Assembly (NCBI GenBank): GCA_052034935.1
Contig: JBPOIB010000001.1
Location: 316,348 to 380,347, forward strand
From: Candidatus Moraniibacteriota bacterium
Lineage (GTDB): Bacteria; Patescibacteriota; Minisyncoccia; Moranbacterales; UBA1568
DNA length: 64,000 bases
Direction of reading: 5' to 3'
Below, one piece after another: positions 2,868-14,745 of the stretch (its first letter is position 1; each line of letters begins with the position of its first letter). The notes below the pieces were generated by a model. It had not been told where the DNA came from and made no database searches. It saw nothing but the letters and a program-made list of their open reading frames with translations. The position numbers and the translations under genes are program-made.

Positions 2868-3245
2868 CCCCTGTACAAAACAGATCGATAAGCCGGATTC
2901 TGTACCCTTCGATCACTCTCTGGGCGACTATCATTTCTCTTGCTCGACCGTTGCCGGCCGAATCTTTGCAGTTCTCCCGATGTTTTTTGAGCTCCAAAAA
3001 CCATCTGGCACGACCTTGCATCGAGGTAAGGATTTAGCCGTTTCACCCCCGCCTTTCGACAGGATTCTTCCCGAAGGAAGCCGCGGCCTTTCGGCTCTGG
3101 CGTCACTGCTCGCACCTCTCAAATCGCTTTGGACGGGCGTTACCCGCTACCAGCTACCTTTTAGGGGTCGATGTCCGGACTTTCCACACCGCCCCGTTTT
3201 ATATGGGCTAGCGCGATAGTCTGATCTGTTCTGTAAAGGACGGTC
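2868..3245 (-). ncRNA. rnpB: RNase P RNA (bacterial type A)
   Basis: Minus strand carries the universally conserved P4 strands GGAAAGTCCGGAC (plus coords about 3169-3186) and ACAGAATCCGGCTTATCG (about 2886-2904). Complementary P1 strands ACAGAACAGATC (3221-3236) and GATCTGTTTTGT (2872-2890) bracket the molecule. A sigma70-like promoter TTGACA-N17-TTCAAT lies just upstream. Length about 375 nt. No long ORF on the sense strand. Confidence 0.85.
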
Positions 3246-6766: not shown

Positions 6767-7975
6767 TCAAAAAACGATTCTAAAGAAGTCTTTCTTCCCC
6801 ACTTTTACTACCGCATCTTTGTGGTCATCGGAAACGACAACAGCAAAGTCTTCCAGTTTTTTTTCATTCACTGACACTCCGCCTTGTTCGATCTTCCGTC
6901 GCGCTTCCGTCTTGCTTGCCGCTACACCAGCCACAACCAAAAGCTCAGTGAATGCCGTACCAACAGACGTCTGTACCGAAGGCATCTCCGTTGGCACATG
7001 GCCTTTACTAAACGTCTCGATGAAATATTGTTCCGCCGCCGCTCCCGCTGTGGCACCATGGTACAGCGTGACGATTTCTTTCGCGAGCCGAACCTTCGCA
7101 TCGCGAGGATTCGCACCAGTCACAATCGCTTCAGCAAATTTGGCGATGTCCTCCATCGGTACGCGCGTACAGTGCACGAAATACTCCATGATGAGCTCGT
7201 CCGGAATGCTCATGCATTTCCCGAACATATCATTCGGCGTATCAAGGAGATTGATCGTGTTCCCCCAGCTCGAGCTCATCTTACGGCCATCGGTCCCGAG
7301 GATGAGGTTGGTCATGAGAATCCCCTGCTCTTTCTGACCGTACTTCGGCTGCATCGTTCGTCCGGCCAACAGATTGAAACGCTGATCGGTTCCGCCGAGC
7401 TCAACATCAGACTTCACGGTCACACTGTCATAGCCCTGCATCAGGGGATAGAGGAGCTCACGGAGAGAAACTCGCTTTCCTGCTTCGAGACGTTTCTTCA
7501 CGTTTTCCCGGGCAATGAATTCAGCGAGCGAGAACGCATCCGCCTGTTCCCCGATTTCCTTATAGGTCAGCGATCCCAGCCATTCGGAATTATGTCGCAC
7601 CTCGACCTTCGAAATATCGAGAATCTTGGCCGCCTGGTCGACATAGGATTGTAGATTTTGCTCGATGACCTCAGTCGAAAGCATTGGTCGTTCCGCTTCC
7701 TTGTCTGAAGTATCGCCGATGATGCCGGTAAAGTCGCCGACAATGAACACGACATCACAGCCCAATTCCTGGAAATCGCGCAGTTTCAAAAGCGGCACAG
7801 ACCGGCCGAGATGAAGGTTCGGGCTCGTCGGATCGATGCCGAGCTTCACCCGGAGTTTTTCGCCAGCAAGAAGCCGCTTCTTCAGATGCTCGCGGTCAAT
7901 CACTTCGGCCACACCGCGAGTCAAAAGCTCTTCAATTTTTTGTTCTCGGTTTTCCATATGTATGTATTCTACCAC
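6767..7975 (-). CDS. tyrS: tyrosine--tRNA ligase (possible true start at 7957)
   Basis: HIGH-region variant GIDPTSPNLHLGR, KMSKS variant KMSSS, C-terminal S4 RNA-binding domain (RRKIEQGGVSVNEKKL). Confidence 0.88.
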   Translation of the reverse strand: MVEYIHMENREQKIEELLTRGVAEVIDREHLKKRLLAGEKLRVKLGIDPTSPNLHLGRSVPLLKLRDFQELGCDVVFIVGDFTGIIGDTSDKEAERPMLSTEVIEQNLQSYVDQAAKILDISKVEVRHNSEWLGSLTYKEIGEQADAFSLAEFIARENVKKRLEAGKRVSLRELLYPLMQGYDSVTVKSDVELGGTDQRFNLLAGRTMQPKYGQKEQGILMTNLILGTDGRKMSSSWGNTINLLDTPNDMFGKCMSIPDELIMEYFVHCTRVPMEDIAKFAEAIVTGANPRDAKVRLAKEIVTLYHGATAGAAAEQYFIETFSKGHVPTEMPSVQTSVGTAFTELLVVAGVAASKTEARRKIEQGGVSVNEKKLEDFAVVVSDDHKDAVVKVGKKDFFRIVF

Positions 7976-8409
7976 CCGTATTCGCTGTATGAGATGTTAT
8001 TCTGAATATTTCCCAGAACCGTTCTAATGTAAGGAATAGTGTTTTCAGGCAAATAATCAATGGCAAACCAAGATAAATCATCACATTTCCCCGGTTCCCG
8101 ATTTTGTACTTCACCCTCCCAATGACTGACTGGGAAAAACGCGTCTACTCGTTCTGAACCATCTTCGCCTTTCCGGTGGAGAATATGCGGTGCAGCTAAC
8201 TCGCCTGGATCAATACGGACTCCAATTTCTTCATAAATCTCCCGAAGCAAGGCGGCCGTAAAACTCTCTCCCGGTTCGACATGCCCCGCCGGCAATGAAT
8301 ATTGACCGTCACAATACCCGGTATTCGCTCGGCGAGCGAGGAGCACCTTTCCGTCCTGAATAAGTACCAGGTAGGAAGCAAGGACATTGGTCGGGAGATG
8401 TTTCCCCAT
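7969..8409 (-). CDS. NUDIX hydrolase
   Basis: Nudix box GHVEPGESFTAALLREIYEEIGV (GX5EX7REUXEEXGU). Confidence 0.85.
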   Translation of the reverse strand: MGKHLPTNVLASYLVLIQDGKVLLARRANTGYCDGQYSLPAGHVEPGESFTAALLREIYEEIGVRIDPGELAAPHILHRKGEDGSERVDAFFPVSHWEGEVQNREPGKCDDLSWFAIDYLPENTIPYIRTVLGNIQNNISYSEYGW

Positions 8410-8414
8410 ACGGC

Positions 8415-8723
8415 CTAGAGTCCAAGCTTCCGTTTCGCCAACCGGTACTGGTCATCCGACATCTGTCCGGCCTTTTTCATTGCGTCGAGCTGAGCCATGA
8501 TTTCGCCCTTGTGTTTCTCGATATTTTTCGGGGTCATCGCCTTCTGCATCACCTTTTGGCGCTCCTCCGGCGACATTTTCAGCACCCGCTTCATGGCGAA
8601 GCGCTGAATCATATTCATATCTTTCGCTCCCGGCATCGCGGCGAGTTCAGCTTCAAGCTTCGCTGCATCTTCATCAGTCTTCTTTTTTTCTTCGTCGTCT
8701 TTTTTGAAGGGATTCCATTTCAT
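8415..8723 (-). CDS. hypothetical small highly charged protein
   Basis: 102 aa, Lys/Glu-rich, no TM; co-directional between secF and the NUDIX gene. Confidence 0.45.
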   Translation of the reverse strand: MKWNPFKKDDEEKKKTDEDAAKLEAELAAMPGAKDMNMIQRFAMKRVLKMSPEERQKVMQKAMTPKNIEKHKGEIMAQLDAMKKAGQMSDDQYRLAKRKLGL

Positions 8724-8744: not shown

Positions 8745-9677
8745 TTAGGCTGGCTTCTTGTTTTCGACTATTGCCTGATCAGGAAACTTCATCTTGAACC
8801 GGGTGACCAGGAGCGCCGAAGCGATGAAGATGGATGAATACGTTCCGAAGCCGACACCGATGAGAAGCGCAACCGCGAACCAACGGACGCTTTCGCCGCC
8901 GAGTACCGCGACCGCGATCAGCACGATGATGACCGTGAGTGATGTATTTACCGAACGAACCAGTGTTTCATTGAGCGAGCGATTCACAATCGCCTCAAAG
9001 TTTGTGCCGGCGCGCGATCGGAGGAGATTCTCACGTACTCGGTCATAGACGACGATCGTATCGTTCACCGAATAGCCGAGGATAGTGAGGAGCGCAGCGA
9101 CGAACGGCACACCGACTTCGACGTCAGAGAAATGACCAAGGAGCGCGAAGACACCGACCGTGATAACAATGTCGTGGGCGAGGGCGATGATTGCTCCTGC
9201 ACCATATTCCCAGCTCTTCACCGGGTACGCCACGCGTCGGAAGGCCCAGGCGATATAAAGCGCGATACCGATAAGAGCGAGCAGTGTGCCGGTAAAGGCT
9301 TGGCGCTGCATCTGATTGGACACGGAAGCACCGATAAAGTCGACGCGGAGCTGCGCTACGGCGGGATCAATTTCCTTCATCGCGCTGAAGACCTTTTCGT
9401 TCGTCGTATCATCCGAGGCGAGGTAACGGATGAGCATACCCCACTCGGCGGTCGGTTGTACCGTGAGACTCTGGAGCTCGACCGCGGCCAGCTTTTCCCG
9501 GATCGTATCCGCTGTCGGAGCGACTGCCTCGGTAAAGCGCACTTCCATGAGCGTCCCGCCTTTGAAGTCGATGCCGAGCCGGAGGCCGTAGATGAAGATG
9601 CAGGCGATCGCCGCTCCCGTGACAAGGATGGAGAAGGCGTAGGCGTATTTCCGTTTCTGGATGATGTTGAGCTGCAT
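8745..9677 (-). CDS. secF: protein translocase subunit SecF (ORF track extends to 9752; ATG at 9677 gives a conventional N-terminus MQLNIIQKRKYAYAF)
   Basis: Polytopic membrane protein with SecF-type periplasmic loop; follows secD with a 5-nt gap. Confidence 0.85.
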   Translation of the reverse strand: MQLNIIQKRKYAYAFSILVTGAAIACIFIYGLRLGIDFKGGTLMEVRFTEAVAPTADTIREKLAAVELQSLTVQPTAEWGMLIRYLASDDTTNEKVFSAMKEIDPAVAQLRVDFIGASVSNQMQRQAFTGTLLALIGIALYIAWAFRRVAYPVKSWEYGAGAIIALAHDIVITVGVFALLGHFSDVEVGVPFVAALLTILGYSVNDTIVVYDRVRENLLRSRAGTNFEAIVNRSLNETLVRSVNTSLTVIIVLIAVAVLGGESVRWFAVALLIGVGFGTYSSIFIASALLVTRFKMKFPDQAIVENKKPA

Positions 9678-9681
9678 ATCT

Positions 9682-11367
9682 TTATTCTTTGGGCAGATCA
9701 AGTTTTTTCGGAGTAACGAGAATCCATGGGTGTTGTTCCATCCAATCGGCAAAAAGAAAATTCACCATAATCCGGACAAGCACAACGGCCGTGAAAAGCG
9801 AGAGAAGTACACCGAGCGCCAGAATGAAAGCAAAGCCCTTCACGAAGCCCGTCCCCATGCCCATAAGGATGACCGTGGTGATGATGGTCGAGAGGTGCCC
9901 ATCGCGAATTGACGGCCAGGCGCGGCGAAAACCTTCCTGCAAGGCCTTCCGCATCGACTTACCAAAGGCGAGCTCTTCGCGAGTACGCTCGAAGATAAGC
10001 ACGTTGGCATCGACCGCGATACCGATCGAGAGGATGAATCCGGCGATACCGGAAAGCGTGAGAGTAATCGGAAAGGGTGTAAACGCGGAGAGCTTGAAAA
10101 GCGCGAGAAGCATCGCCGAATAAAGGAGCAGCGCCAGAACAGCAATGAAACCAAGGAAACGATAGAAAAGGAGCATAAAAACCGAAACGGCTGCAAGACC
10201 GATGATACCGGCTCGGACGCTCTGGTCGAGAGCTGACTTGCCGAGCGAAGCGTCGATTGATTGCTGCGAGACGAGTGTGATCGGCACCGGGAGCGCTCCC
10301 TCGTTGAAACGCTTTACTTCAGCATTCGCCTCGGCCAAGGTAAAGTCGCTGGTAATGACCGCCTGGCCATCGCGGATTTCCGCCTGCACGGTCGGCTGAC
10401 TCATGATCTGGCCGTCGATGAAAATCGCGACCGGCTTCCCAATATTGCGCGAAGTGATATCGGCGAACAACTGTTTGCCTTCATCATTGAACCGGAGTGC
10501 GATCTGCGGCGATCCAATCCCCTGACTCTGGTAATCGACAAAGACATCAGTGAGGTGCTTACCCGAGAGTCCAGTCGCTTTGTACTTGAGCTGCGGGGCG
10601 TCATCGAGCGAGTACTTGGGGAAGAGGATATGCGCGATATTCACCTCACGCTCCTCACCCTCGCCCCGTTCATCGAGCTTCTTGATGATATGCCAGCCGA
10701 AAGTCGTCTCGACCAAAGCCGGATGAATCGCACCCTTCCCGAGGTTCGGATCGAAGGCAACCGCATCGAATTCCGGTACATAGGCACCCTGCTTGGCGAA
10801 ACCGAGCTCGCCGCCGGTTTCCTTTGCTCCCGGGTCCTGGCTCCAGGTCATTGCGAGCTCGCTGAAATCACTCCCCGCTTTCGCGTTATCGAGAATTTTG
10901 TCGGCCGTATCCTTCGACTGTGCATTATAGGTATCAATTTCGGTCTGCGCCTCCGGACCGGCCAGCTCCCGGAATTCGAGGAACGGCGTTTCCTTGATGA
11001 GATTCTTCGCTTCTTCGATGTCTTTGATGCCGGGCAGCTCGACGATGATCCGGTTCTCGGTCCCCGAACGCGAGAGCTGGACAACTGGTTCTCCAACACC
11101 GAAAGCGTTCACGCGCCGTTCGATCACATCGACCGCCGCCTGAAGCGCTTCATCCTGCTTCGCTTCGTCCACATCCGAGGTATCCGCCGCGTATTCAAGA
11201 TGGATGCCACCCTGGAGATCGAGGCCGAGATTGATTTGGGCCTGCTCGAAGAACCGCTCAATGGGCGGTACGAAGAAAGCGATTTTCGGGTAGGCAATCA
11301 GACTCGACGCCAGGGCGAGGAGAACGACACCCGCGAACTGATAGCGGAGGCGCTTGATAGCGTTCAT
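9682..11367 (-). CDS. secD: protein translocase subunit SecD carrying an inserted parvulin-type PPIase domain in the periplasmic P1 region
   Basis: N-terminal TM, then LGLDLQGG motif; aa about 140-235 read SDFSELAMTWSQDPGAKETGGELGFAKQGAYVPEFDAVAFDPNLGKGAIHPALVETTFGWHIIKKL, near-colinear with E. coli PpiC (ADFGKLAKKHS...GGDLGEF...MVPAFDKVVF...TQFGYHIIKVL); C-terminal 6-TM SecD core with RND-like motifs. Confidence 0.85.
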   Translation of the reverse strand: MNAIKRLRYQFAGVVLLALASSLIAYPKIAFFVPPIERFFEQAQINLGLDLQGGIHLEYAADTSDVDEAKQDEALQAAVDVIERRVNAFGVGEPVVQLSRSGTENRIIVELPGIKDIEEAKNLIKETPFLEFRELAGPEAQTEIDTYNAQSKDTADKILDNAKAGSDFSELAMTWSQDPGAKETGGELGFAKQGAYVPEFDAVAFDPNLGKGAIHPALVETTFGWHIIKKLDERGEGEEREVNIAHILFPKYSLDDAPQLKYKATGLSGKHLTDVFVDYQSQGIGSPQIALRFNDEGKQLFADITSRNIGKPVAIFIDGQIMSQPTVQAEIRDGQAVITSDFTLAEANAEVKRFNEGALPVPITLVSQQSIDASLGKSALDQSVRAGIIGLAAVSVFMLLFYRFLGFIAVLALLLYSAMLLALFKLSAFTPFPITLTLSGIAGFILSIGIAVDANVLIFERTREELAFGKSMRKALQEGFRRAWPSIRDGHLSTIITTVILMGMGTGFVKGFAFILALGVLLSLFTAVVLVRIMVNFLFADWMEQHPWILVTPKKLDLPKE

Positions 11368-11426: not shown

Positions 11427-13139
11427 TTACCCTCGTTTTTTGCCGAGACGCTCTTGGAGGCGCTTCAGCCGACGCTTCGCTTCTTGTTCCAATCGCTTGG
11501 CATAGGTGGCATAATCAGCGATTGGCGCCAGCTTACCATCCGCGATGAGATAGGCATGATCGAGTTTCACATGTGAGAGGAAAGTCCGGTCATGTGTCAC
11601 GACAATAAGCGTCCCGGTATAGGCCGAGAGAGCGTCTTCCAACGCTTCGATTGCTTCGAGGTCGAGATGGTTGGTCGGTTCATCGAGCGTGAGAACATTC
11701 GCCCCCTGATGGACGAGCGAGGCGAGGACGAGCCGGACGCGCTCGCCCGGGCTCAGTCGGCCGATCTTCACGTCGGCTTCATCGGGAATGAACCCAAACT
11801 GAGCGAGCATCAGGAGTACACGCTCGCGCTCGAAGACACGATAGCGTTTGGCGAAGTAGGCAATCGGGGTGAGATCGAGCGGCAGATTCTCCCCTTCCTG
11901 CATGAGGTCACCGAAGATCACTCCTTTGCTCAGCCGGACCGTGCCGACAATCGGGTCCAGATGGCCGGTGATTGTTTTTAAAAGTGTCGACTTACCAGCG
12001 CCATTCTCGCCAAGAAGTGCCACGCGAGAACCAAACGGCAGTCGAAGCGTGATACCACTTACAACACGCTTCTCTTTCGCGTAGCCAACAGAAACTCGCG
12101 TCAGAGTCACCGCTGGTGGAGCAATCTTCGTATCGGGTGCCAGCTCGAACTCCAAGGGTGGCCGCTCAAACGGCTTCTCGTGTTCGTTCAATCGATCAAG
12201 CCGGCCTTCAAGCGCTTTGGCTGAACCAGTGAATTTCTTAATGGCACGTTCTTTTTTGTAATTCGAAGCGAGTTTGTCACGGTCCGGTCCGCGTTTTTTC
12301 TTCGTCTCATCGGCCCAGTGGATTTTCTCCGCCGCCGAAGTGACCACTCGGTCGCGCTCACGCTGCTCGGCGCCGTAGAGTTCCTTGGCCCGCCGAAAAA
12401 GATGCGCCTTGGTCTCGGCATAGGTCGACCAGTTGCCATTATAAATCTGGGCCGAATGCTTCATTGGATCGATCGCGAGCACACGCGTCACCACGTGGTC
12501 GAGAAAAGCCCGGTCATGTGATGCGACCAGTATCGTTGTGCCAGAACGGACGAGATAGGCCTCGAGCCAGAGCAGTGCGACCAAGTCAAGATTATTCGTC
12601 GGCTCATCGAGGAGGAGGAGATCGACACCCGAAAGAAGCACAGCAGCGAGACTGAGCTTACGCTTTTCACCACCCGAAAACGTATCGAGTGGACGGTTCA
12701 GATCAAGCGAGACCAAAGCGAGGCCATCGAGTATTCCCTTGGCCCGGTCGAGGAAAGCGTAGCCGCCGAGACGCTCGAAGTTCTCTTGCGCCTTTTCATA
12801 TTCGGCGAGCTTGTCTGGATCAGCGATGTATGGCTCGAGCGCAAGCATTTCCTCCTCAAACCGGCTCACCCCGCTCGAGCGACGGAGAAATTCCAGGGCT
12901 GTCTCTTTTCCTTCGACCTTGGTTTCCTGCGGCAAGTAGCCGACGAGCTTATCTTTTGTGATCGTCACGAAGCCGCGATCCGCTGGCTCGAGACCAGCGA
13001 TGATTTTGAGGAGGGTCGACTTGCCCGTACCATTCTCCCCCACCATCGCCATCCGCATCCCGGCAGGCAGCGCAAACGAGACTTCGTGGAGAAGCCGTCT
13101 GGTACCAAAACTTTTGCGGAGTCGCTTCACCGCGAGCAT
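11427..13139 (-). CDS. ABC-F family ATPase (two tandem ABC domains, no TM; EttA/Uup-like translation factor)
   Basis: Two Walker A motifs (GENGTGKST, GENGAGKST), two signature/Walker B regions, linker between domains, C-terminal basic tail; 570 aa. Confidence 0.88.
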   Translation of the reverse strand: MLAVKRLRKSFGTRRLLHEVSFALPAGMRMAMVGENGTGKSTLLKIIAGLEPADRGFVTITKDKLVGYLPQETKVEGKETALEFLRRSSGVSRFEEEMLALEPYIADPDKLAEYEKAQENFERLGGYAFLDRAKGILDGLALVSLDLNRPLDTFSGGEKRKLSLAAVLLSGVDLLLLDEPTNNLDLVALLWLEAYLVRSGTTILVASHDRAFLDHVVTRVLAIDPMKHSAQIYNGNWSTYAETKAHLFRRAKELYGAEQRERDRVVTSAAEKIHWADETKKKRGPDRDKLASNYKKERAIKKFTGSAKALEGRLDRLNEHEKPFERPPLEFELAPDTKIAPPAVTLTRVSVGYAKEKRVVSGITLRLPFGSRVALLGENGAGKSTLLKTITGHLDPIVGTVRLSKGVIFGDLMQEGENLPLDLTPIAYFAKRYRVFERERVLLMLAQFGFIPDEADVKIGRLSPGERVRLVLASLVHQGANVLTLDEPTNHLDLEAIEALEDALSAYTGTLIVVTHDRTFLSHVKLDHAYLIADGKLAPIADYATYAKRLEQEAKRRLKRLQERLGKKRG

Positions 13140-13415
13140 AGCTACAATTCGCTCAATTAATGATTCCTTACTCTATACTCTTTCTCCAAAAAAATCAAGG
13201 CTTTTATGGCTTAATGAAGCTTCTCCATCATCATTGACCCCGTTAGAAGTCACAATTATTCCCCTTAGTATTTTTTGGCTTAAATATGGGATATTTATGT
13301 TTATTTTATAACACACTACTAACAAACTTCTAACGGGGTTGACTTTTTGATTAAAATTCACTACTGTATTGATTCCATATCTCATGGAAATTTCTTTACC
13401 AACCTGGAGACATTC

Positions 13416-13628
13416 ATGAAGAATCTCCTCATTTTCATCGTGGCGTCCCTCGTCACATGCTGGGGAGCACTCCTCTTTATGGATGCCCTCAATCAACCAG
13501 TCGAAACGGACATTGTTCGCGGTGTCATCGGTTTCGCACTCTTCGTAGTCGGCCAGTGGGTTGCCGCCTACTTCTTCCTTAGACATCACTCCCCTCCACC
13601 AACCGACTCGAAAGGAACCTCATCATGA
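13416..13628 (+). CDS. small two-TM membrane protein (70 aa), first gene of a 3-gene small-protein operon
   Basis: ATG at 13416 preceded by GGAGA 5 nt upstream; predicted helices LLIFIVASLVTCWGALLFM and VIGFALFVVGQWVAAYFFL; the ORF track shows a longer 93-aa version starting at 13347. Confidence 0.5.
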   Translation: MKNLLIFIVASLVTCWGALLFMDALNQPVETDIVRGVIGFALFVVGQWVAAYFFLRHHSPPPTDSKGTSS

Positions 13629-13843
13629 AACTTGACCGTACCGAAAAGGGAGCCCTGACTTCGGTCATCGGTGCTCTGTTCATCGCCTTCATGGGGATCA
13701 TCTACGAAGATCTTCGTCATGATCCAAGTGCGGTCGCCAAGTATTGGCAGAACATCATGTTCTGGCTGATGATGCTCGGCCTCGCACTCTTCGTAAGTGG
13801 CGCCGGCATCGTCTACGGCACTCGCATGCTCACGCACAAGTGA
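13625..13843 (+). CDS. small two-TM membrane protein (72 aa), second gene of the operon (start overlaps previous stop, ATGA)
   Basis: AAAGGA RBS upstream; helices LTSVIGALFIAFMGIIY and IMFWLMMLGLALFVSGAGIVY. Confidence 0.5.
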   Translation: MKLDRTEKGALTSVIGALFIAFMGIIYEDLRHDPSAVAKYWQNIMFWLMMLGLALFVSGAGIVYGTRMLTHK

Positions 13844-13854
13844 AGGAGAACATC

Positions 13855-14088
13855 ATGACGAACAACTTGGCCGATTGGAGGGTTCGACTCATCGAGGCCG
13901 TCACTCAACTCCAGTCCGGAAGTGTTGGCGCGTACGCCATCATCCTCGACGCCGAGAGCTTCGGCGAAGACAGTGCCGTGATGCACGCCTGCCGAGACGT
14001 CCTGGCTGAAATGGCCGTCACAGACGATGAACTCAGACTCTGGTTCCGGAACTACCAGGAACGGATCACGCGACCTGTCCCCGCCTGA
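13855..14088 (+). CDS. small soluble protein (78 aa), third gene of the operon
   Basis: ATG at 13855 preceded by AAGGAGAA (perfect SD) directly after the stop of the previous gene; the ORF track shows an unlikely N-terminal extension from 13744. Confidence 0.5.
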   Translation: MTNNLADWRVRLIEAVTQLQSGSVGAYAIILDAESFGEDSAVMHACRDVLAEMAVTDDELRLWFRNYQERITRPVPA

Positions 14089-14107
14089 CGGCCATGCCCC
14101 GTCACAC

Positions 14108-14156
14108 AAAAGCCGCACCACCGAGAAACCCCTCAACGGTGCGGCTTTTGAATTTT
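14108..14156. terminator. bidirectional rho-independent terminator between convergent genes
   Basis: Stem AAGCCGCACC (14110-14119) / GGTGCGGCTT (14138-14147) flanked by A-run and T-run. Confidence 0.6.
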
Positions 14157-14184
14157 CTCCACCCTATCTATTATCTAAGTACTA

Positions 14185-14745
14185 TCAGCTCTTCACTTTT
14201 TTCAGATAGTCTTCTGTTTCTTGCAGTACACGCTTCGCATTCACGAAGGTCACTTTTTCCAATGCTCGGTTAAATGGGAGCCAGAGTGAACCGATATGCT
14301 CATGAGAGATTTTCACTTCGGTACTCCCATTCGCAAGGGCTGGATAGAAATGGACTATCTTGAAAATCCAAGTGCCCCGGCCTTCGCGCTTCCGACGTTC
14401 ATATTCATTGCCACGTGCCTCGTAGAAATACTTGATACTGACTCGCTCCGGATACACATCGAGTTCACTGATCCCGGTCTCTTCTTCCGTTTCACGCCGG
14501 AGCGTATCAACTTCCGTTTCACCACTCTCGATATGTCCCTTGGGGAAATCAAAATGCCCACTCGGATACTGAAGGATGAGGTATTCCCGCTCACCTTGTT
14601 CCGACCGTCGAAACAGAACGCTGCCAACCGAAACTTCCCAGACCGTCGGGAAGCCGAAAAGGCCAAGTGCCTGGCACAAAAATTTGTTCACAGGAAGGTG
14701 CATATGTCTCCAGATTACAGGGAAAAAAGACGATTGACAAAGCAC
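14185..14745 (-). CDS. NUDIX hydrolase (Ap4A/NudH-like; true start may be Met at 14703)
   Basis: Nudix box GHFDFPKGHIESGETEVDTLRRETEEETGI. Confidence 0.8.
   Translation of the reverse strand: MLCQSSFFPVIWRHMHLPVNKFLCQALGLFGFPTVWEVSVGSVLFRRSEQGEREYLILQYPSGHFDFPKGHIESGETEVDTLRRETEEETGISELDVYPERVSIKYFYEARGNEYERRKREGRGTWIFKIVHFYPALANGSTEVKISHEHIGSLWLPFNRALEKVTFVNAKRVLQETEDYLKKVKS

Follow-up and report, generated by a model that had tools for sequence, protein, structure and literature searches.

An apparently circularly permuted parvulin-type domain embedded in SecD of a Candidatus Moraniibacteriota bacterium

How chains are handed over from the SecYEG exit to folding factors is still unsettled. 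In Escherichia coli, the membrane-anchored parvulin chaperone PpiD sits at SecYEG and contacts the P1 head of SecD (PMC7793623, PMC9643414), where it photo-crosslinks to Asp-359 (PMC7793623), and AlphaFold2 docks the parvulin domains of SurA on the P1 head of SecDF (PMC9987972). This head also binds the substrate during translocation and swings as protons flow (summarized in PMC7793623). SecD of Mycoplasma pneumoniae can be crosslinked to a parvulin lipoprotein, Mpn444 (bioRxiv 10.1101/2024.09.05.611430). The contacts between PpiD and SecD and between SurA and SecDF rest on crosslinks, low-resolution electron microscopy and AlphaFold models (PMC7793623, PMC9987972). Here we describe a SecD in which a parvulin-type peptidyl-prolyl isomerase (PPIase) domain is part of the SecD chain itself. 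Its gene lies in a stretch of 64,000 nucleotides from a Candidatus Moraniibacteriota (Moranbacteria) bacterium, a member of the candidate phyla radiation (GenBank assembly GCA_052034935.1, contig JBPOIB010000001.1, positions 316,348 to 380,347), hereafter the window; coordinates are those of the window, and all features of secD and secF described below are on the minus strand.

The secD open reading frame (9682–11367, including the stop codon) encodes 561 residues. Between the Pfam domains SecD_1st (residues 76–135) and SecDF_P1_head (257–361), the protein contains a segment (residues 137–256; nucleotides 10600–10959) that matches Rotamase_3 (PF13616) at residues 147–233 with 72.6 bits (cut-off 22.5; E 5e-20) and Rotamase (PF00639) at residues 146–230 with 61.1 bits (cut-off 21.7; E 2.2e-16), far beyond chance. 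The initial annotation had placed a parvulin-type PPIase domain at 10660–10950 (residues 140–236) and had expected these two families to be nested between SecD domains, as indeed they are. Its near-colinear alignment with E. coli PpiC is likewise recovered: residues 17–89 of PpiC (1jns) align with SecD 155–231 (E 2.4e-7), and every motif that it listed is present (SDFSELA, GGELGF, YVPEFDAVAF, FGWHIIK and REVNIAHILFPKY). The best match among solved structures is SurA P2 (E 5e-15), PrsA being retrieved at E 1.9e-11, and the insert has the three-dimensional fold of parvulins. That the region might instead be the ordinary P1 head found in all SecD proteins is contradicted by the SecDs that lack a parvulin (e.g., P0166; loci L027–L039), which have almost no sequence there; their base and head are about 5–20 residues apart, and therefore the whole of residues 137–256 is insert. 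We give next to no credence to an artefactual origin of the insert, by chimeric assembly or frameshift, or to a chance insertion of recent date and no function, since an identical protein is encoded on a contig of 399,564 bp, the frame is unbroken, and the architecture is common to 120 homologues from many independent assemblies and recurs in distant lineages.

Apart from the insert, the protein has the layout of SecD, with an N-terminal transmembrane (TM) helix, a large extracytoplasmic P1 domain made of a base and a head, and a C-terminal bundle of five TM helices resembling that of the resistance-nodulation-division family. It matches the SecD equivalog model TIGR01129 over residues 47–535 (369 bits; cut-off 244.4) and T. 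thermophilus (Thermus thermophilus) SecDF (3aqp) in a search against solved structures (E 2.4e-65). The N-terminal part of the P1 base (residues 44–136; 10960–11238) comprises Sec_GG (45–64) and SecD_1st, and its last strand spans residues 130–135 in the structure model; the P1 head (residues 257–362; 10282–10599) is matched by SecDF_P1_head with an E value of 6.5e-24 and aligns with 3aqo and 3aqp. The base return strand and TM helices 2–6 follow (residues 363–545; 9733–10281; SecD_SecF_C at 364–528) and contain D453, which lies in the motif AVDANVLIFER, is invariant in 63 homologues reaching down to 65% identity, and aligns with D340 of T. thermophilus SecDF in AVDGNVLSFER. D340, in TM4, is reportedly the aspartate of the proton pathway (Tsukazaki, 2011). 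Immediately downstream of secD is the gene for its partner subunit, secF (8745–9677; SecD_SecF_C, E 1.6e-57; Sec_GG, E 3.4e-9). Judged by these matches, the window protein is a bona fide, intact SecD/SecF motor subunit, whose parvulin domain lies outside the membrane, tethered to the P1 base by 2 residues and to the P1 head by about 10.

Parvulins follow the order β1-α1-α2-α3-β2-α4-β3-β4. In the window SecD, the Rotamase_3 match begins only at position 32 of the 116 in the profile, in agreement with the initial annotation, which had noted the absence of the N-terminal AxHIL strand at the start of the insert, and in the structure model the base strand 130–135 passes directly into helix α1 (138–163) with no strand in between. 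The core thus consists of α1-α2-α3-β2-α4-β3-β4 without β1 (residues 137–235; 10663–10959). Its last strand, β4 (224–234), is followed by a hairpin loop, GEGEE (residues 236–240; 10648–10662), and by a ten-residue strand, EVNIAHILFP (residues 241–250; 10618–10647), with a catalytic-type histidine, His246; a linker (residues 251–256; 10600–10617), delimited by this model strand and the start of the Pfam head match, leads into the P1 head. The AHILF strand noticed earlier therefore does follow the core, just beyond the coordinates originally given. Here β1 comes after β4 and all elements are present in rotated order; a short linker connects the original ends of the fold, and the new ends fall in what was formerly a loop. 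This is the arrangement of a circular permutant.

To restore the canonical order, residues 236–253 were moved ahead of residue 148. The score against Rotamase_3 rose to 82.0 bits, with the match now starting at profile position 14, whereas the controls, in which the segment was reversed (77.2 bits) or shuffled nine times (75.4–76.8 bits), all began at positions 31–34. In solved structures, the parvulins of SurA align with the un-permuted construct over its full length, REVNIAHILFP pairing residue for residue with TELNLSHILIP of SurA P1 and EVHARHILL of SurA P2. We also computed mutual information with average product correction from about 120 non-redundant single-parvulin sequences, without correcting for phylogeny. 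The strongest pairs involving the strand 241–250 were 204–243, 187–243 (to β2) and 204–244, pair 231–245 (to β4) ranked 13 in an analysis of the insert only, and for all ten residues of the strand the best covariation is with the parvulin core; this support for the placement of the relocated strand (β1') is modest. An ordinary SecD hinge or head element is rejected as the source of the AHILF strand, as parvulin-less SecDs have nearly no sequence between base and head.

The same data bear on a different reading, namely that there is no permutation and that the domain is an N-terminally truncated parvulin followed by a piece of the hinge or head that resembles β1 by chance. In its favor, residues 243, 244 and 250 covary with head positions: among the top 100 pairs, the strand is linked to the head by 8, to the base by 1 and to the parvulin core by 15. 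A truncated domain would nevertheless leave much to coincidence, namely the gain over the shuffled segments, the match to SurA β1 with an invariant His246, the preference of all ten residues for the core, and the lack of an equivalent strand in parvulin-less SecDs. Moreover, the structure model shows β2 (187–192) as a paired strand, and in the parvulin fold β2 is not known to pair with any strand other than β1. We consider truncation very improbable; the sequence comparisons and the structure model support the assignment of strand 241–250 as the missing β1, and hence of the domain as a circular permutant rather than a canonical member of the parvulin family, as the initial annotation had proposed as a possibility. 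How the permutation arose is only hinted at: the junction of the permuted domain is collinear with that between SurA P1 and P2, which might point to duplication and deletion from a SurA-like tandem, yet this stretch scores just 7.8 bits.

Alignment of the un-permuted domain with Pin1, Par14 and PpiC, using reference sequences whose numbering is self-consistent, places all members of the catalytic hydrogen-bond tetrad (His, Cys or Asp, Thr or Ser, His) in the window SecD. H246 corresponds to Pin1 H59 and Par14 H42 and is present in 63/63 homologues; D178 corresponds to Pin1 C113 and Par14 D74 (62/63); T221 to Pin1 T152 and Par14 T118 (Thr or Ser in 63/63); and H226 to Pin1 H157 and Par14 H123 (63/63). 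The hydrophobic proline pocket formed in Pin1 by L122, M130 and F134 is represented by conserved residues, L188, Y196 (Tyr or Phe among homologues) and F200, the last of these conserved in 63/63. The SecD parvulin domain has no basic loop of the Pin1 type, and phospho-specificity is therefore not expected.

By sequence, the insert resembles SurA P2 and PrsA and not PpiD. SurA (E. coli and Salmonella; 1m5y, 2pv1, 4g2p) acts as a chaperone in soluble form in the periplasm and combines an N/C chaperone module with two canonical, β1-first parvulins, P1 and P2; the window protein, in contrast, has no N/C module, has a permuted strand order and is covalently part of SecD. PrsA (Gram-positive bacteria; 4wo7, 1zk6, 6vj6) differs in that it is a free-standing, dimeric lipoprotein and has an NC chaperone domain. 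The NCBIfam models of SurA (42 bits; cut-off 394) and PrsA (46 bits; cut-off 361) both match only residues ~149–235, and a score so far under the cut-off means that the window protein is not a PrsA. The window SecD does not have the combination of features that marks PpiD, i.e., a TM anchor of its own at the N-terminus, SurA-like N and C chaperone domains and a catalytically inactive parvulin. The initial annotation had linked the fusion to the partnership of PpiD with SecD. This proposal is supported: the partnership that in E. coli is seen by crosslinking of PpiD to the P1 head is covalent here. T. thermophilus SecDF (3aqp, 3aqo, 5yhf) has ~40 residues (122–161) and no parvulin where the window SecD has ~130 (139–268), and its SecD and SecF are fused, whereas those of the window are encoded by separate genes; the D. 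radiodurans SecDF structure (5xam) was also compared. Finally, Mpn444 and Mpn436 of M. pneumoniae, a wall-less bacterium with a reduced genome, resemble the window SecD as cell-surface parvulin PPIases with a crosslink to SecD but are separate, large, trimeric lipoproteins.

The architecture is widespread. All 120 best homologues (66–100% identity) share it, which answers the earlier question of whether the insert is conserved, and each of them is named just 'SecD'. A HMMER search with the P1 domain against 1.84 billion cluster representatives returned 244 matches at E ≤ 1e-30, and among the best 150 of these 244 (representatives of 50%-identity clusters) a parvulin lies between base and head in 88. 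The insert thus appears to be under purifying selection over a wide divergence. We further surveyed one genome per GTDB species; the resulting distribution is a sample and refers to the matches listed, among which the fusion is present in Moran-, Buchanan-, Kerfeld- and Falkowbacteria, Parcubacteria, Gracilibacteria and Peregrinibacteria. A single permuted parvulin occurs in Moran-, Buchanan- and Kerfeldbacteria and in the 'Patescibacteria group' (L001–L011), with the trailing-strand histidine in 10/11 loci; two parvulin cores are found in Falkowbacteria/Parcubacteria (L012–L019); and Gracilibacteria/Peregrinibacteria (L020–L022, L026) have SecDF fusions of about 1050–1090 residues with a degenerate first core and a canonical parvulin, SecD and SecF being joined in one protein at L020, L022 and L026. 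The parvulin is absent from the sampled SecDs of the Microgenomates type (Ames-, Chisholm-, Shapiro-, Gottesman- and Daviesbacteria) and from those of Paceibacter and Wildermuthbacteria. In P0194 and P0209, which are representatives of the Gracilibacteria/Peregrinibacteria type, an extra 150–165 unassigned residues separate the parvulin from the head. Several SecD records of the type found in the candidate phyla radiation (CPR) are labelled Lysobacteraceae, Gammaproteobacteria, Bacteroidales or Actinobacteria (L007, L009, L012, L030, P0359, P0364) and are probably mis-binned or mis-assigned; L007 (JAACEG010000012.1), assigned to Lysobacteraceae, has 29.7% G+C, a misfit for that family.

The two-parvulin SecDs, exemplified by P0131, and the SecDF fusions of Gracilibacteria and Peregrinibacteria share with the window SecD the insertion site, the β1-less core and the trailing strand before the head. 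They differ in that their permuted domain is degenerate, whereas the window protein has a single intact one. In the first core (domain A) of the two-parvulin SecDs, the histidine position of β4 is Glu in 42/59 sequences, and the trailing strand has His in just 27/59; that both positions are relaxed indicates that these two elements belong together, and domain A is therefore a permuted parvulin with a canonical parvulin, domain B, nested in its β4-β1' hairpin. Domain B is inserted where the window SecD has its GEGEE loop. Domain B of P0131 and its relatives retains H277 and H369 in 59/59 and is predicted to be catalytically intact, while in the Gracilibacteria-type proteins the degenerate permuted domain is nearly undetectable. 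The nested parvulin of P0131 and 58 homologues from Falkowbacteria/Parcubacteria also has two invariant cysteines (59/59; residues 281 and 288) in a long loop between β1 and α1, HLLICYxGxEGCES, whose conservation points to a disulfide on the extracytoplasmic side or to a metal site.

Taken together, we assign a probability of roughly 0.72 to the explanation that the window encodes an intact SecD with a permuted parvulin at the P1 base-head connection, which would act as a PPIase and/or holdase. The chain would leave the base at its last strand, traverse the parvulin core (α1 to β4) and, by way of a short hairpin, supply the central β1 with the catalytic His before entering the P1 head. Placed beside this substrate-binding, proton-driven head, the domain, a putatively active and non-phospho-specific PPIase and/or holdase, would meet each chain that the head pulls from SecYEG and could speed Xaa-Pro isomerization, shield the chain, or both, so that in these small-genome bacteria one SecD chain would do what parvulin chaperones of the PpiD, SurA or PrsA type do elsewhere by docking on SecD. 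A translocon-tethered foldase or holdase for emerging chains is the most likely function.

The chief alternative is that the embedded parvulin is non-catalytic, like that of PpiD and like SurA P1, and serves as a substrate-binding or holdase surface, as a spacer, or as a regulator of P1 head movement. Three observations weigh against a catalytic role. The permuted domain of the two-parvulin relatives has lost its histidines in many sequences and yet persists; that of the Gracilibacteria type has decayed almost beyond recognition; and position 196 is Tyr or Phe where Pin1 and PpiC have Met. The persistence of a degenerate domain implies that the scaffold itself is selected. On the other hand, the lineage of the window protein keeps every tetrad residue in 62–63 of the 63 homologues, the trailing-strand His recurs in nearly all single-parvulin loci across candidate phyla, and the closest match by sequence is to SurA P2, which is catalytically active, and not to SurA P1 or PpiD. 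Degenerate permuted domains, moreover, always hold an intact nested canonical parvulin, as if one active site must stay. We therefore regard a non-catalytic domain as unlikely and favor the translocon-tethered foldase. A far broader statement would have the permuted parvulin be an ancient, lineage-defining SecD foldase of the Patescibacteria that replaces stand-alone chaperones of the PrsA, PpiD or SurA type in these reduced genomes, couples the proton-driven swing of the head directly to the capture and prolyl isomerization of emerging chains, became the scaffold for a nested parvulin that took over catalysis, is the first natural parvulin permutant and provides covalent evidence for the P1 head as a docking site; that all of this should hold jointly seems rather doubtful.

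Neither a fusion of SecD with a parvulin nor a permuted parvulin was found described in the full-text literature, a body of text that excludes most subscription journals; the pair of Pfam domains is already precomputed in public protein tables, and their co-occurrence is thus visible in databases. The locus reveals no new mechanism; its value lies in a clean natural fusion that bears on an open question about Sec and in an unusual rearrangement of a fold. The fusion joins in one chain two partners whose contact in E. coli is transient, and its conservation, with a SurA-P2/PrsA-like domain at the P1 base-head junction, constitutes independent evolutionary evidence that chaperones of this kind act there. 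A single-chain system this compact also lends itself to structural and biochemical studies of translocation-coupled folding. For protein evolution, it supplies a natural parvulin permutant together with relatives that house a canonical parvulin in the hairpin, the catalytic residues having shifted between the domains. Public records say only 'SecD', and as a consequence a probable foldase activity of CPR bacteria escapes notice.

The secD neighborhood consists of housekeeping genes, including those for both subunits (α and β) of phenylalanyl-tRNA synthetase, tyrosyl-tRNA synthetase, two NUDIX hydrolases, an ABC-F ATPase and a class A penicillin-binding protein. A six-frame scan with hidden Markov models found no stand-alone parvulin gene within the 64-kb window. 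Directly downstream of secF, a highly charged open reading frame of 102 residues rich in Lys and Glu (8415–8723, minus strand) matches no Pfam family, lacks an obvious TM segment and is not YajC-like, although it occupies a possible site for an accessory factor. The NUDIX hydrolase genes flank the secDF region (7969–8409 and 14185–14745, both minus strand), the second being preceded by the gene for an ABC-F-type double ATPase (11427–13139); the ~1 kb between these two (~13140–14180) has only short, overlapping open reading frames of 83–138 residues on both strands and no Rfam match. No tRNA genes were found within the 64-kb window, and its sole Rfam family match is a bacterial class A RNase P RNA (2873–3232, minus strand), which matches the full-length model with 126.3 bits (gathering score 100).
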